Below are positions 32,590-37,850 of a stretch of 64,000 nt of DNA, in pieces. Made by a program: the position numbers and the translations under genes. The DNA is from an uncultured cyanobacterium. Lineage in GTDB: Bacteria; Cyanobacteriota; Cyanobacteriia; Cyanobacteriales; Cyanobacteriaceae. Numbering within the stretch: the first letter of the stretch is position 1; every line of letters begins with the position of its first letter. Below the pieces are notes generated by a model. That model did not search any database, had not been told where the DNA came from, and saw nothing but the letters and a program-made list of their open reading frames with translations. The DNA lies in the NCBI GenBank assembly GCA_963710605.1, contig CAVQBA010000006.1, forward strand, positions 224,001 through 288,000. The letters run 5' to 3'.

Positions 32590-33666
32590 ATGAAAAATCA
32601 AAGATTATCCGCAGATAATTTACCCATGAACAAAAATTATAATCGCCCCCTCAAAATAGGTGTTATTGGGGTAGGTAATATGGGACAACATCATACCAGA
32701 GTTTTGAGCTTACTCAAAGACGTTGAGTTAGTAGGAATTGCTGACGTTAACGTCGAAAGAGGTTTGGATTTAGCTGGTAAGTATAGAGTTCGTTTTTTTG
32801 AAAATTACCAAGAATTATTACCTCATGTAGAAGCAGTTTGTATTGCCGCCCCAACTAAACTGCATCATCAATTAGGTTTAGAATGTCTTAACGCTGGCGT
32901 ACATATTTTAATCGAAAAACCAATTGCCGCTAGTATAGCTGAAGCCGAATCTTTAGTTAACGCCGCCGCTACTGCTAATTGTATTTTACAAGTCGGACAT
33001 ATCGAACGTTTTAATCCAGCTTTCCAAGAATTGAGTAAGGTATTAAAAACAGAAGATATACTTGCACTTGAAGCCCACAGAATGAGCCCCTACTCTAATC
33101 GTGCTAATGATGTTTCTGTGGTTTTAGATTTAATGATTCATGATTTAGATTTACTTTTAGAAGTAGCTAATTCTTATGTAGTCAAAGTTAATGCTACAGG
33201 TAGCCGTTTAGCAAATTCTCAACATCTAGATTATGTTACTGCTACTCTTAATTTTGCTAATGGTATCGTTGCCACTGTCACGGCAAGTAAAGTAACTCAT
33301 CGTAAAATTCGTGGTTTAGCCGCCCATTGTCAAAATAGCCTAACTGAGGCAGATTTCCTTAACAATGAAATTTTAATTCATCGTCATACTACTGCTAATT
33401 ATACTACCGACTATGGACAAATTTGTTATCGTCAAGATGGTTTAATTGAAAAGGTTTACACCAGTAATATTGAACCTTTACACGCTGAATTAGAACATTT
33501 TGTTAGTTGTGTTAGAGGTGGTAATCAACCTTCTGTTGGTGGCGAACAAGCCTTAAAAGCCTTACGTTTAGCTAGTTGTATCGAAAAGTTGGCTTTAGAT
33601 GGTAAAGTGTGGGAAGATTCTTCGATTGATTTACATCAATTAAACGGACACATTGTCAGCATCTAA
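32590..33666 (+). CDS. Gfo/Idh/MocA oxidoreductase
   Basis: GVIGVGNMG, LIEKP, VGHIERFNP, DLMIHD. Confidence 0.92.
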   Translation: MKNQRLSADNLPMNKNYNRPLKIGVIGVGNMGQHHTRVLSLLKDVELVGIADVNVERGLDLAGKYRVRFFENYQELLPHVEAVCIAAPTKLHHQLGLECLNAGVHILIEKPIAASIAEAESLVNAAATANCILQVGHIERFNPAFQELSKVLKTEDILALEAHRMSPYSNRANDVSVVLDLMIHDLDLLLEVANSYVVKVNATGSRLANSQHLDYVTATLNFANGIVATVTASKVTHRKIRGLAAHCQNSLTEADFLNNEILIHRHTTANYTTDYGQICYRQDGLIEKVYTSNIEPLHAELEHFVSCVRGGNQPSVGGEQALKALRLASCIEKLALDGKVWEDSSIDLHQLNGHIVSI

Positions 33667-33850
33667 CAGTTAAGAGTTAAGAGTTAAGAGTTAAAAGTTA
33701 AAACCTATAAGCTATAAGCTAAGAGTTATTTATTGTCAATTCTCAATTGTCAATTATTATACATACCATAGTGTTCGTAACGATAATTAACTACTTATTA
33801 CTTATTAGACTTCTTTCATAATTAACAATTAAAGTTAGAAGATAAAAATT

Positions 33851-34129
33851 ATGGAATTAATTACAGGTGAAGAGTTAATTGACTTTGCCACAACTATCAA
33901 ATCAAAATCAGATTTTGAGTATTTTCTTCTATGTTTTGTCGAAGACTATAAAAAAAATCAAAATGAATGGGAGAATAAAAATTTGCTGAGTTATTTGGAA
34001 GGGATGAGATATTTTGTTCCGAGTATGGCTAACTACTATAAAAATATGAATGAAGAGGTTGATGTCGAACATGCAAGTTGGCGTATTGTTGCTGAAGTAT
34101 TAATTGCGGCAACTATTTATGGTAATTAA
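33851..34129 (+). CDS. Small hypothetical protein resembling orphan immunity-type proteins
   Basis: EWENKNLLSYLEGM...ASWRIVAEVLIAATIY pattern. Confidence 0.6.
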   Translation: MELITGEELIDFATTIKSKSDFEYFLLCFVEDYKKNQNEWENKNLLSYLEGMRYFVPSMANYYKNMNEEVDVEHASWRIVAEVLIAATIYGN

Positions 34130-34311: not shown

Positions 34312-34480
34312 TCGATCGAGATAATATTTGCGTTGGGTTTATCCTCCAAGTCAGAACCTGTTGATAGTGGCTTATGCTAATTATCCTGTTGGTCAGTCTT
34401 TTATTTGGTAGGTGATGTCGATGTCTGTTTGGAGTAGAAGGGTTGACCAGATGTGGTTTACGCTATTATTGAGTTGATTA
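34312..34480 (-). pseudogene. Decayed fragment of a larger protein (repeat A; also at 34645-34800 and 35549-35714)
   Basis: NQLNNSVNHIWSTLLLQTDIDITYQIKD*PTG*LA*ATI/TGSDLEDKPNANIISIDH; copy 2 TYQIKDLPSGQLAEAIITDFDSEGKPKVEIVSI; copy 3 EIKDLPIGQLVQVTITGFDSQNKPKVGIVSI. Confidence 0.7.
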
Positions 34481-34850
34481 TTGGAAAGATACTCCTTGAT
34501 GGTGATGCAAGTACGATCGACATCTCGTAGGTTGGGTTAAGCCTCGAAAAGATTAATATACATTCGATACATAAAATAAAAGCCAAACCCAATAACCGTC
34601 GCCTTAATAAAACTAGAAATAGCGATCGTAACCTAACCCTCGATCGATCGAGACAATTTCTACCTTGGGTTTACCTTCCGAATCGAAATCTGTAATGATG
34701 GCTTCTGCTAGTTGTCCAGAAGGTAAGTCTTTTATTTGATAGGTTATCGATGTTTGTTTGAGGTAGAAAAGTTGACCAGATTTGGTTTACGCTATTATTT
34801 TATCGATCGAGTGTTTGTAGATTTGAATTAGATATTGAAGGAGAAATTTG

Positions 34851-35372
34851 ATGACCAGTATTATTATTGATCCCATTGAGCATAAACGTAGAATGGATAC
34901 TTGGAGTTATATTGACAGAATTTGGGACAGAAGCGATATCGCTCAAGAAGAAATTGTTAATATTTTTGATCAGTTCTTTGCTCCCACTATTACTGTTCGG
35001 GAATTGCGGGAATATTATGCCAGAGGAGAAAGAGAATTCATTGACATCAGTTTGCCCCATAAAGCTAATTTGACGGGAATCAATTTGGCTGGTGCGAATT
35101 TGATTGGTGCCAAGTTTAATCACTCCAATCTGACTGGGGCTAATTTGAACGGGGCTAATTTGAGATATGCTTGGATTAATGGAGTTAACTTCACTGAAGC
35201 TAATTTGGAAGGTGTTGATATTTCCTGGGCTGATGCTACTGGAGCTATTTTAAAAAATGCTAGTTTGCTCAATGCGATTGGACAATTTGGTATTAATTGT
35301 GATGCTCTTTATGAAAATACTATCAGACCTAATGGAAGCATTATCAAAGGACCCTATCGCCCTTTCGGATAA
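34851..35372 (+). CDS. Pentapeptide-repeat protein (cassette 2)
   Basis: YARGEREF...ANLTGINLAGANLIGAKFNHSNLTGANLNGANL...NTIRPNGSI; AGGAG RBS. Confidence 0.88.
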   Translation: MTSIIIDPIEHKRRMDTWSYIDRIWDRSDIAQEEIVNIFDQFFAPTITVRELREYYARGEREFIDISLPHKANLTGINLAGANLIGAKFNHSNLTGANLNGANLRYAWINGVNFTEANLEGVDISWADATGAILKNASLLNAIGQFGINCDALYENTIRPNGSIIKGPYRPFG

Positions 35373-35734
35373 TTCTAATAAGTTATTATTCGCTAATAAA
35401 AAAACTGGTAGCCTATAAGTACGATCGACATCTCGTAGAAAAAGGTGAAGCCCCGAAAAGATTAATATACATTCGATACATAAAATAAAAGCCAAACCCA
35501 ACAACCGTCACCTCAGTTAAACTAGAAATAGCGATCGTAACCTAACCCTCGATCGAGACAATTCCTACCTTGGGTTTATTTTGAGAGTCAAAACCTGTGA
35601 TAGTGACTTGTACTAATTGCCCTATTGGTAAGTCTTTTATTTCATCGATTATCGATGTTTGTTTGAGGTAGGAGAGTTAACCAGATTTGATTTACGCTAT
35701 TATTTAGTTGATTAATTATTTGAGGATTTGAACT

Positions 35735-36115
35735 ATGACTATGGAAGGTGGAGAATTGATCGCTCGTTATGGGGCGGGAGAAAGAGACTTTGCTGGAGTC
35801 GATTTGAGTGATGCCGATTTGCAAGATGTTCATTTGGATGGGATCAATTTGGAAGGGGCTATCTTGGATGGGGCTAATATGTGTTTTAGCACTTTTTCTC
35901 ATGCTAACTTCAAAAATGCCAGTATGGAAGAAATTGTTGCTCAAGAAACTTTCTTTGGAGATGCCACTTTTGAAAATGCTAATCTCAGAAATGCTATTAT
36001 TGCTGAATGTTGTATTGATAGAGCTAGTTTCAAAGGAGCTAATATTGAAGGTGTCGATGATAGCCTTTTCTACGGGGAGTATATATGGAGCGATGGAAAA
36101 GTCATTAGTGAGTGA
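35735..36115 (+). CDS. Pentapeptide-repeat protein (cassette 3)
   Basis: ELIARYGAGERDFAGVDLSDADLQDVHLDGINLEGAILDGANM...WSDGK. Confidence 0.88.
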   Translation: MTMEGGELIARYGAGERDFAGVDLSDADLQDVHLDGINLEGAILDGANMCFSTFSHANFKNASMEEIVAQETFFGDATFENANLRNAIIAECCIDRASFKGANIEGVDDSLFYGEYIWSDGKVISE

Positions 36116-36327
36116 GTAATCTTCAAAGTACGATCGACATCTTGTAGGTTGGGTTAAAGCCTCGAAAAGCTCAATATAAATTCGATACATAAAATACAAG
36201 CGAAAGCTAACAACAGTCGCCTCAGTAAAACTAGAAATAGCGATCGATCCCCCTAAATCCCCCTTAGAAAGGGGGACTCGATCTATTTATGTATCGCTTT
36301 TATAGATTGAATTGGTCTTCTTACTTA

Positions 36328-37455
36328 TTACTCCCACAATCGCCGACGAGACGAACCATTATAGCGGTGATGGCTATCATACAATAACTGCGGTATATCT
36401 AAAGATTCGGGGCATTTAGGTAAACATTCGCCACATTCGGTACATTTGTTTCCTTTTTGTCCCCAAAACCAATGCCCTGCATTTTCAAACATTTGATAAC
36501 GATATTTAGCGTATTCTGTCATCTCCAAACCAACACCAAGATTACGCAGACGTAATATTTCAGATATATTGATATTTTCAGGGCAAGGTAAACATAGATG
36601 ACATTGACTACATCGATCGGTTTGTAAAATCTCGCTCAATGCGGTTTCAATTTTAGCAAAAGTTTGTTGTTCTTCAAAAGTTAACGATCGATCGTCTTCG
36701 GCGACTGATAATGGTACGATAAACTGTTCTGGATTACTTGCCCCTAAACTCAATGTGGTAATACGTCGATCGTTAAGTAAAAAACGGTAATTCAAATACA
36801 TCGGTGTAAAAGGCTGACAAAGACTACTCAATTTAGTTGAAGGTTGATGTAACAACCCTCCTTTGTCTACAGGAGAAATAATAAATACACCCATATCTTT
36901 CTCTTGGGCTAATGTTAAAGCAGGGCTATTTCTTTGCCAAAAATAATAGTAGTGTAAATTAACAAACGAAAATAGATTTGTTTCGATCGTCTTGCTAATT
37001 AAATCTAAATTACCATGAGTAGAAAAACCAATATGTTTAATTTTTCCTAATTGTTGTGCTTTTTTTAAAACATCTAAGCAACTGTTTTTTTGCGTAACAA
37101 TTTCTAAATGTTGTGGCGTATTAATTCCGTGAATAGCAACACAATCAAGATAATCTACTTGTAAATTAGCTAAAGATTCATCTAACCATTTTTGCATTAT
37201 TTGAGCAGAATCAACAGGAGTAAATTTAGTCGTAATAACAATTTTTTCACGAGGAATATTTAACTGTTTTAAAGCCTTACCCAAATATTGTTCACTTTCA
37301 CCGTAAGCCTTTGCAGTTTCTATATGATTGATACCTAATTCTAATGCTTCATTAACGGTGTCTAACAATTGATTATAATTATCACAACAACGCATCAAAC
37401 CAAGAGAGAAAACCGACATTTTTAATTCTGTCTTACCAAAACGACGATATAGCAT
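36328..37455 (-). CDS. Aldo/keto reductase with C-terminal 4Fe-4S dicluster
   Basis: YRRFGKT, HIETAKAYG, IGFSTHG, CSQCHLCLPCP and CTECGECLPKCP. Confidence 0.9.
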   Translation of the reverse strand: MLYRRFGKTELKMSVFSLGLMRCCDNYNQLLDTVNEALELGINHIETAKAYGESEQYLGKALKQLNIPREKIVITTKFTPVDSAQIMQKWLDESLANLQVDYLDCVAIHGINTPQHLEIVTQKNSCLDVLKKAQQLGKIKHIGFSTHGNLDLISKTIETNLFSFVNLHYYYFWQRNSPALTLAQEKDMGVFIISPVDKGGLLHQPSTKLSSLCQPFTPMYLNYRFLLNDRRITTLSLGASNPEQFIVPLSVAEDDRSLTFEEQQTFAKIETALSEILQTDRCSQCHLCLPCPENINISEILRLRNLGVGLEMTEYAKYRYQMFENAGHWFWGQKGNKCTECGECLPKCPESLDIPQLLYDSHHRYNGSSRRRLWE

Positions 37456-37580
37456 TGCATAGTTAATAGTTGATATAGCGTTTCCTACATTTATGAGGTA
37501 TAGTTTATATTTGCAAGTCCCCCTTTCTAAGGGGGATTTAGGGGGATCGATATGTGATTCATAATACTAATAATTGCTAT

Positions 37581-37850
37581 CTATAAAACGATCGTCTCTT
37601 GTCAAATGTGCTAAGTAATTAATTATTCATTCTAAGGGTTAGTTGTTGGGTTTCGTTTTTATTTTATTTGTAGTTTAGATCTTAAGCCTTTAGAGACTCA
37701 ACCCAACCTACAACTATAAAACGATCGTCTCTTGTCAAATGAGCTAAGTAATTAATTATTCATTTTAAGGGTTAGTTGTTGGGTTTCGTTTTTATTTTAT
37801 CTCTAGTTTAGATCTTAAGCCCTTGGAGGCTCAACCCAACCTACAACTAT
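37581..37850. repeat. Two tandem 133-bp units each with CGATCG and a GTAG-footed long REP-like element
   Basis: ctataaaacgatcgtctcttgtcaaatg...gttgggtttcg...ctcaacccaacctacaactat at 37581 and 37714. Confidence 0.9.

Follow-up and report, generated by a model that had tools for sequence, protein, structure and literature searches.

The window analysed here is a stretch of 64,000 nucleotides from an uncultured cyanobacterium of the family Cyanobacteriaceae (assembly GCA_963710605.1, contig CAVQBA010000006.1, positions 224,001 to 288,000 of the forward strand), and our subject is a tandem array within it that carries two genes for pentapeptide-repeat proteins (PRPs). The array is built from two repeats, A and B, and has the layout [A0][B1][A1-PRP1][B2][A2-PRP2][B3]. 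It is flanked by a DUF7660 gene (33851-34129) on one side and by an aldo/keto-reductase gene (36328-37455, minus strand) on the other. PRP gene 1 (34851-35372, plus strand) encodes 173 amino acids from its ATG and matches Pfam PF00805 with an E-value of 5e-20; a TTG at 34848 is an alternative start, and AAGGAG lies 7 nucleotides upstream. PRP gene 2 (35735-36115, plus strand) encodes 126 amino acids with a net charge of -17 (PF00805, E-value 4.2e-16), and its ATG is preceded by GAGGA. Both genes pass the PF00805 profile, which gives 157 matches in the genome as a whole. The gene 2 protein matches 18 PDB sequences, among them Np275/Np276 (2j8k, E-value 2e-17), All3740 (3du1, 2.8e-14) and MfpA (1.6e-7), and is thereby related to proteins whose right-handed quadrilateral beta-helix (Rfr fold) has been solved.

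Repeat A is read on the minus strand. Copy 0 (34312-34480) is a fragment that aligns by tblastn to residues 264-323 of an intact open reading frame (ORF) of 817 codons, and corresponds to the first part of a predicted metzincin-like HExxH domain. It forms an 'empty' unit without a PRP gene and is followed directly by repeat B copy 1 (34509-34647), which in turn abuts repeat A copy 1 (34644-34830) at a CGATCG-rich junction. Copies 1 and 2 of repeat A (the latter at 35549-35735) are frameshifted, truncated remnants of a larger gene, hereafter the host gene, and each carries part of a conserved peptide that we call the A peptide. On the plus strand, A1 holds a promoter-like site of sigma-70 type at 34772-34801, upstream of PRP gene 1, and the sequence just 5' of PRP gene 2 lies in A2. 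Repeat B occurs dispersed in the genome; in the array, copy 2 is at 35417-35556 and copy 3, the last element, at 36126-36265. The A-B junctions in the window are rich in CGATCG, and the A copies end there. No nuclease or HExxH domain was found after A0, A1 or A2.

Both PRP genes lie opposite long minus-strand frames that are codon-aligned with them, so that codon position 2 faces position 2. The ORF opposite gene 2 (35642-36199) has 185 codons and no stop, and continues without a change of frame into the A peptide, as far as the end of its first half. The frame opposite gene 1 (34803-35504) is interrupted by a single TAA, which faces the TTA at 35250-35252, and appears to be a relic of a linker in the host protein. 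No Pfam family was detected on the ORF at 35642-36199, nor on the scanned part (34800-35123) of the frame over gene 1. The alignment of both genes and the complete openness of the second frame had been seen in a sequence-only reading of this DNA, and both observations stand. That reading placed a single TAA in a frame running from 35504 to 34800. The internal stop is the only one between 35504 and 34803, but a second stop at 34800-34802 precedes the A peptide. It also had both antisense frames running into the A peptide, which is correct for the first half (to ...QTNID); the second half is frame-shifted, and the copy is cut by repeat B, in both cases.

Is such openness unusual for a PRP gene of this genome? 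TTA, CTA and TCA are the codons that read as stops on the opposite strand, and their expected numbers were derived from the codon usage of 981 long ORFs in the genome (3.93 Mb, 33% GC, assembly 84.9% complete). In these ORFs TTA accounts for 58.6% of Leu codons, CTA for 9.2% and TTG for 12.7%, while TCA makes up 18.5% of Ser codons. Gene 1 has 13 Leu codons (one TTA, nine TTG and no CTA) and eight Ser codons (no TCA); gene 2 has eight Leu codons (no TTA, six TTG) and eight Ser codons, again without TCA. Our recount agrees with the combined figures given earlier (21 Leu codons, of which 1 is TTA, 15 are TTG and none is CTA, and no TCA). Antisense-stop codons number one in gene 1 versus 10.3 expected, and none in gene 2 versus 6.9 expected. 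The same holds for all 17 PRP genes linked to a repeat A copy, which together contain 6 TTA, CTA or TCA codons versus 227.6 expected from genome codon usage (four TTA and two CTA in 279 Leu codons, no TCA in 207 Ser codons). In contrast, the 33 other PRP genes of this genome contain 769 versus 868 expected. The sequence-only reading had left open that PRP genes in general might avoid TTA equally, and they do not. The antisense openness of the window genes is confirmed as real and far beyond chance.

The avoidance is shared, at slightly higher stop counts, by a few PRP genes for which no A copy could be recognised (for example C2:65212, none; C2:82462, C4:411912 and C5:9489, one each). General avoidance of A-ending codons, or horizontal transfer, as the cause of the TTG preference was excluded: in the A-linked genes GAA, AAA and CAA are used at the genome level, and AGA and GGA above it. 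Two further codons, ACA (5/173) and GCA (6/190), are infrequent in the A-linked PRPs of this genome. The ordinary PRPs of the genome, with their normal TTA use, have the same kind of N-cap.

Repeat A is present in about 20 copies in the genome. Nearly all of them are followed on the plus strand by a PRP gene, across which the minus frame stays open. The ORF behind A is a PRP in every A-linked unit that has one, and two of the 20 units are empty. We considered whether the [A-gene-B] units are integron-type cassettes and rejected this, because the cargo ORF is always a PRP and repeat A is a coding fragment; no search for attC or integrase was made. Two 'empty' or minimal A-B units were found at C6:396030-396371 and C4:387974-388213: one has an 80-amino-acid mini-PRP, consisting of N-cap and C-cap with almost no repeats between, and the other has no PRP, like A0-B1.

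A far more complete version of the minus-strand gene exists at C6:181719-184172. Here the minus frame is the 817-codon ORF mentioned above, which passes through the PRP antisense, the A peptide, the HExxH region and a Big_9/cadherin-like domain. It is the one long host ORF that remains in the assembled genome; four other loci retain decayed parts of the HExxH region. Matches to a nuclease domain in the assembled genome (84.9% complete) comprise only a stand-alone ORF (C5:276066-276833) and a remnant (C7:5546-6448).

A database search with the part comprising the A peptide and the HExxH region returned 188 proteins. Among the matches listed (120), nearly all of the named ones are cyanobacterial, and in many the matched part is preceded by a DNA/RNA non-specific endonuclease domain (PF01223) and followed by PKD, Big_9 or cadherin domains. 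The typical order in a host is a nuclease domain, a Ser-, Ile-, Thr- and Gln-rich linker of ~130-300 codons, the HExxH domain, which starts with the A peptide, and then Ig-like or PKD domains. We inspected 12 of these sequences by eye. Eight have the nuclease domain, and all eight have ~200 Ser/Thr/Gln/Ile-rich residues between it and the A peptide. The linker ends with motifs such as SSIPSEQFF-SIH-NS, which are the exact antisense of a PRP start (with the ATG opposite His) and N-cap (EELLRRYAAGERDF), and the motif at its start, (S/T)IGH(N/D)SF, is the antisense of the PRP C-cap ETIMPDGS. Some hosts have two or three PRP modules in tandem, antisense, separated by only a stop codon or joined in a fused frame (L019 2543-4006, protein P0020, with three modules; L051 2763-3797).

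The size of the hosts is evident from three Calothrix plasmid records (L098, L099, L100), in which the host is annotated as a single coding sequence (CDS) of 34.8, 31.3 or 31.0 kb. The names given to it vary ('peptidase S8/S53', 'polymorphic membrane protein', 'hypothetical protein'). The PRP gene is absent from the annotation in all three plasmid records, although the PLSDB gene tables are incomplete. In AP018293.1 the nuclease/PRP/HExxH module lies ~1,500 codons from the C-terminal end of the host. With 188 homologues and annotated hosts of 31.0-34.8 kb, the suggestion of the sequence-only reading that the A peptide resembles a segment of giant proteins secreted by cyanobacteria is confirmed.

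The HExxH module has no Pfam match, and a profile search against PDB sequences gave 0 matches. A structural model built from an alignment of 55 sequences reached a pLDDT of 87.9 and places the A peptide as the first helix and first strands; it supersedes an earlier model from a 12-row alignment, which was unusable (pLDDT 41.7). In a fold search with this model the best match was leishmanolysin (1lml, E-value 3.7e-4, TMq 0.49), followed by matrix metalloproteinases. H113, E114, H117, G120 and H156 are invariant in the 55 module sequences. We describe the host domain as metzincin-like on the strength of this model, and do not claim membership of a family.

Does the nested arrangement occur beyond this genome? 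In a phylum sample of 300 other genomes the module was found in four. All five loci in these genomes have an intact codon-aligned PRP ORF exactly over the linker, and the antisense frame of the rest of the host is full of stops. A wider scan, with one genome per species, gave 79 loci from Xenococcus, Waterburya, Crocosphaera, Calothrix, Nostoc, Tolypothrix, Chamaesiphon, Acaryochloris and others. We searched these with a hidden Markov model (HMM) derived from 16 PRPs that the genome of the window encodes. At 66 of the 79 loci the HMM matches (E-values 1e-12 to 1e-68) an antisense ORF that is codon-aligned with the host and lies immediately upstream of the A peptide. A six-frame scan of the 79 loci gave 79 PRP-family hits, of which 78 are antisense to the host and 71 codon-aligned. 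At 46 loci a single unbroken host ORF covers nuclease, linker and HExxH domain; at three the nuclease is upstream but its frame is not continuous with the HExxH match, and 17 have a PRP and the HExxH domain with no nuclease detected. The proposal in the sequence-only reading that the PRP genes are nested in a large exoprotein gene is thus upheld, with the A peptide as the start of the HExxH domain and the antisense PRP upstream of it.

The nested ORFs also have the signals expected of genes. An ATG is present no more than 25 codons upstream of the N-cap in 62 of 68 PRP ORFs, and GGAG, GAGG or AGGA occurs at -20 to -4 in 41 of those 62. A full-text literature search, which included papers on PRPs, found no published description of a PRP encoded antisense within another gene.

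A local expectation could be calculated for 47 PRP ORFs, those with a host gene that supplied sufficient codons. All 47 lack TTA, CTA and TCA entirely: there are none in 1024 Leu and 638 Ser codons, versus 399 expected. Openness is also seen in the other direction. The PRP frame is open in these 47 ORFs where the Ser-rich linker predicts ~283 stops, and the same host genes outside the linker have 3.1 such stop-giving codons per 100. All 68 PRP ORFs together contain a single TCA.

Substitutions were counted in 40 pairs with at least 60% nucleotide identity, which gave 1945 codons differing at one base. Changes that are synonymous in the PRP and nonsynonymous in the host made up 53.0%, versus 22.2% under neutrality, a 2.4-fold enrichment. 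Changes nonsynonymous in the PRP and synonymous in the host were reduced (15.4% versus 22.4% neutral), as were those nonsynonymous in both frames (27.1% versus 53.1% neutral). Differences per site peak at PRP codon position 3 in every identity bin. These counts show, at the sequence level, that purifying selection on the PRP frame is strong and that the PRP is the strongly constrained protein of the two.

The constraint on the host frame is of a different kind. In the nested PRPs of other genomes the frequency of ACA is 0.026 versus 0.200, and that of GCA 0.016 versus 0.283. Both codons would place Cys in the host, and Cys makes up 0.3% of the linker and 0.0% of the rest of the host. Across the 79 loci, host ORFs downstream of the linker contain 0.0% Cys in 50,073 codons, and 15.6% Thr. 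GTA and ATA, which give Tyr in the host, are depleted too in the nested PRPs. Since nested PRPs avoid ACA and GCA, their synonymous choice tracks the amino-acid preferences of the protein on the opposite strand. We conclude that the host frame is constrained mainly against stops and Cys, and that evidence for any other amino-acid constraint on it is weak.

Taken together, these results lead us to propose, with a probability of about 0.8 and on comparative sequence evidence, that the window PRPs belong to a widespread cyanobacterial family that is nested, codon-aligned and antisense, in giant exoprotein genes, and that in the window the host has decayed while the small genes persist. The array would be the remnant of one or several genes that encoded a large secreted protein with multiple domains. 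In the intact form, a complete PRP gene, equipped with an ATG and a ribosome-binding site of its own, would have the linker as its exact reverse complement, codon for codon. Both frames would remain readable because the PRP shuns TTA, CTA and TCA, which are stops in the host, and ACA and GCA, which are Cys in the host, and because the linker shuns the same three stop-giving codons on its own strand. Apart from the exclusion of stops and Cys, the linker sequence may then be dictated largely by the antisense reading of the PRP, as a passive read-through, and both products are presumably made. This agrees with the claim of the sequence-only reading that one DNA stretch encodes both proteins, to which stop-free frames beyond expectation, purifying selection on the PRP and Cys avoidance in the host all point. 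Its further claim that the host is decaying while the nested genes persist fits the window well, where repeat A is frameshifted and cut after ~60 codons and both PRP ORFs are intact. As the host frame in the window is dead, with repeat A broken and neither a nuclease nor a protease domain present, PRP genes 1 and 2 would be orphans with a near-complete signature, perfect in gene 2 and with one stop gained in gene 1.

Several observations weigh against this proposal. The support for either strand is evolutionary and drawn from sequence comparison. Of the 79 loci, 13 have no codon-aligned PRP; most of these matches are partial or broken in frame, and at five of the 13 loci a PRP-family hit lies on the antisense strand, though in a different frame or place. 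Eleven of the substitution pairs reach at least 70% nucleotide identity, although they show the same pattern, and the alignments are PRP-guided and the sequences related, so not independent. Finally, avoidance of stop-giving codons is near-intact at the 13 truncated loci of this genome (6 stops in total) despite a dead host, which requires either recent decay or some continuing selection. All six antisense stops in the 17 A-linked PRPs fall in truncated loci; the four loci with a retained HExxH region have none. The numbers are small, and the direction, which is that expected if constraint relaxes once the host is lost, suggests such relaxation.

Could the overlap serve regulation instead? Transcription of the PRP strand, perhaps from a promoter inside the A region, might gate the giant host gene or the reverse, so that the products are mutually exclusive and no contact between PRP and host protein is required. 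With an overlap this complete, transcription of the two genes must be head-on, the sigma-70-like site in the window lies inside A1, and the linkage of PRP to HExxH domain persists without the nuclease (17/79 loci). In addition, the region 30-60 nucleotides upstream of the PRP ATG is conserved across genera and has a TAnnnT-like element, which suggests that a PRP promoter is written into the coding region of A. However, this region coincides with a conserved host peptide and the two kinds of conservation are not separable, and a promoter scan gave 9 sites versus 7.7 expected. Transcription alone needs neither purifying selection on the PRP nor a conserved ATG with its ribosome-binding site. We consider regulation an unlikely explanation by itself; it is a compatible addition to dual coding and no replacement for it.

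An explanation to which we give little credence is that the orphan [A-PRP-B] units are recombination cassettes, silent donors that swap linker and PRP into full-length hosts by way of repeat A. This would explain the open antisense frames, and their near-complete freedom from stops in truncated loci. The ~20 A copies are 75-85% identical to each other at the nucleotide level while the PRP bodies are highly diverged, tandem units are frequent and occur at three genomic sites, and CGATCG palindromes lie at the A/B junctions. Against this, no mosaic copies were seen, though no search aimed at them was made, and a single long host ORF is left in the assembled genome. The confinement of the six stops to truncated loci, with none in the four HExxH-retaining loci, also fits simple relaxation after host loss.

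That a single strand is translated and the other open frame is a 'shadow ORF' produced by repeat composition is very improbable and largely refuted: codon-aligned antisense frames are the commonest class of long shadow ORFs, and the antisense products here have no Pfam family, but ordinary PRP genes of the same genome are closed on the antisense strand (those 769 stop-giving codons), 46 loci join nuclease and HExxH domains solely by translating the linker, the PRP frame is open against the predicted stops and under purifying selection, and PRP synonymous choice follows the avoidance of Cys in the host.

Repeat B and the surroundings of the array have some features of their own. Repeat B is ~70-140 nucleotides long and occupies 79 merged blastn intervals in the genome, often right after a PRP stop codon and with CGATCG palindromes at its bounds. 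It has no significant fold (z -1.8 to +0.1) and no Rfam match. In the window it is also found as inverted tandem copies at 37581-37713 and 37714-37846. The DUF7660 ORF directly upstream of the array (33851-34129, plus strand) encodes 92 amino acids (E-value 3.6e-23). The aldo/keto-reductase/4Fe-4S gene on the other side is flanked by a perfect 36-nucleotide inverted repeat (36243-36278 and 37516-37551) with a G/C-rich core (CCCCC...GGGGG). A short tandem array of TAAGAGT-like heptamers lies at 33664-33728, just past a GFO/IDH/MocA oxidoreductase gene. Rfam and tRNA scans of the window found one tRNA-Cys, distant from the locus.

What might a nested PRP do? Orphan immunity genes are a familiar concept from polymorphic toxin systems. 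Our preferred but tentative idea is that the acidic, signal-less PRP could act in the cytoplasm as a mimic of DNA, either inhibiting the His-Me finger nuclease next to it or conferring immunity to it, with the orphans resembling orphan immunity genes. Net charge is acidic in 61 of 62 nested PRPs (median -9). PRPs able to mimic DNA are described for MfpA (PMC7980463), secreted EndoG-like nucleases have cytoplasmic inhibitors, for example in the NucA/NuiA pair (PMC2790893), and GH-E His-Me finger toxins have YjbI-like PRP genes as neighbours (PMC5714182). A more doubtful extension is that the PRP immunity gene lies reversed inside the toxin gene so that recombination cannot part them, and that the ~20 diverged orphans, including the two in the window, might form a repertoire against the nucleases of neighbours.

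The inhibitor idea also has evidence against it. Besides the 17 of 79 loci that combine a PRP with the HExxH domain and no detected nuclease, the tightest coupling of the PRP is to the HExxH module, and no nuclease domain adjoins any PRP in the window's genome (84.9% complete). The PRPs are unrelated to NuiA. A complex prediction for the nuclease domain and nested PRP of one locus (L082, with 28-row alignments for each) scored 0.00, which is evidence neither way. If true, the immunity reading would be a new toxin-immunity linkage and a new function for PRPs.

Few long antisense overlapping genes have been put forward for bacteria, their status is disputed, and such genes are removed by rule during automatic annotation. 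Such overlaps are known as a kind, but we are not aware of any description of an old, defined protein family nested in the linkers of giant exoprotein genes across genera. The closest cases are olg1/olg2 of Pseudomonas aeruginosa (PMC8850804) and pop, opposite ompA in E. coli O157:H7 (PMC7103648). These share with the nested PRPs an ORF of several hundred bases that is fully embedded antisense in a coding gene and ignored by annotation pipelines. As those reports present them, they are evolutionarily novel ORFs that rest on expression data, whereas the nested PRPs belong to an old, structurally solved family and the evidence for them is evolutionary. Unlike olg1/olg2 and pop, as far as the reports describe these, the nested PRP is conserved across many genera (66/79 loci), and the partner it overprints is a host linker and not a folded domain.

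Comparisons can also be made with known nuclease-inhibitor pairs and toxins. NucA/NuiA of Anabaena likewise combines a secreted cyanobacterial nuclease of the EndoG/Serratia type (PF01223) with a small, signal-less, genetically linked protein (PMC2790893). By that account, however, NuiA has an alpha/beta fold with a central sheet and no beta-helix; the nested PRP, here a putative inhibitor, lies inside the nuclease gene on the opposite strand. MfpA and Qnr (PMC7980463), and the Rfr-fold proteins Np275/Np276, All3740 and Alr5209 (PDB), belong to the same family by Pfam and by sequence and are acidic too. Where targets of PRPs are known, namely for MfpA and Qnr, the target is gyrase, according to the same source (PMC7980463). 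Polymorphic toxin systems resemble the present one in having a giant secreted protein, a nuclease near its C-terminal end, a small linked gene and many diverged stand-alone copies of that gene. Classical immunity genes differ in lying downstream on the same strand, and the host nuclease here has further domains after it.

If correct, the nesting of PRPs is a family-wide case of antisense overlap, spread over dozens of genera, in which the nested gene has a well-known fold. Both frames carry clear and differing signatures of selection, and the rest of each host gene serves as an internal control. Unannotated PRP genes would sit inside annotated giant genes. The simple codon signature, in which TTA, CTA and TCA are absent and ACA and GCA scarce, would mark PRP genes of nested origin even after the host is lost, as in the window, and the arrangement may provide a candidate function for some of the cyanobacterial PRPs of unassigned role.

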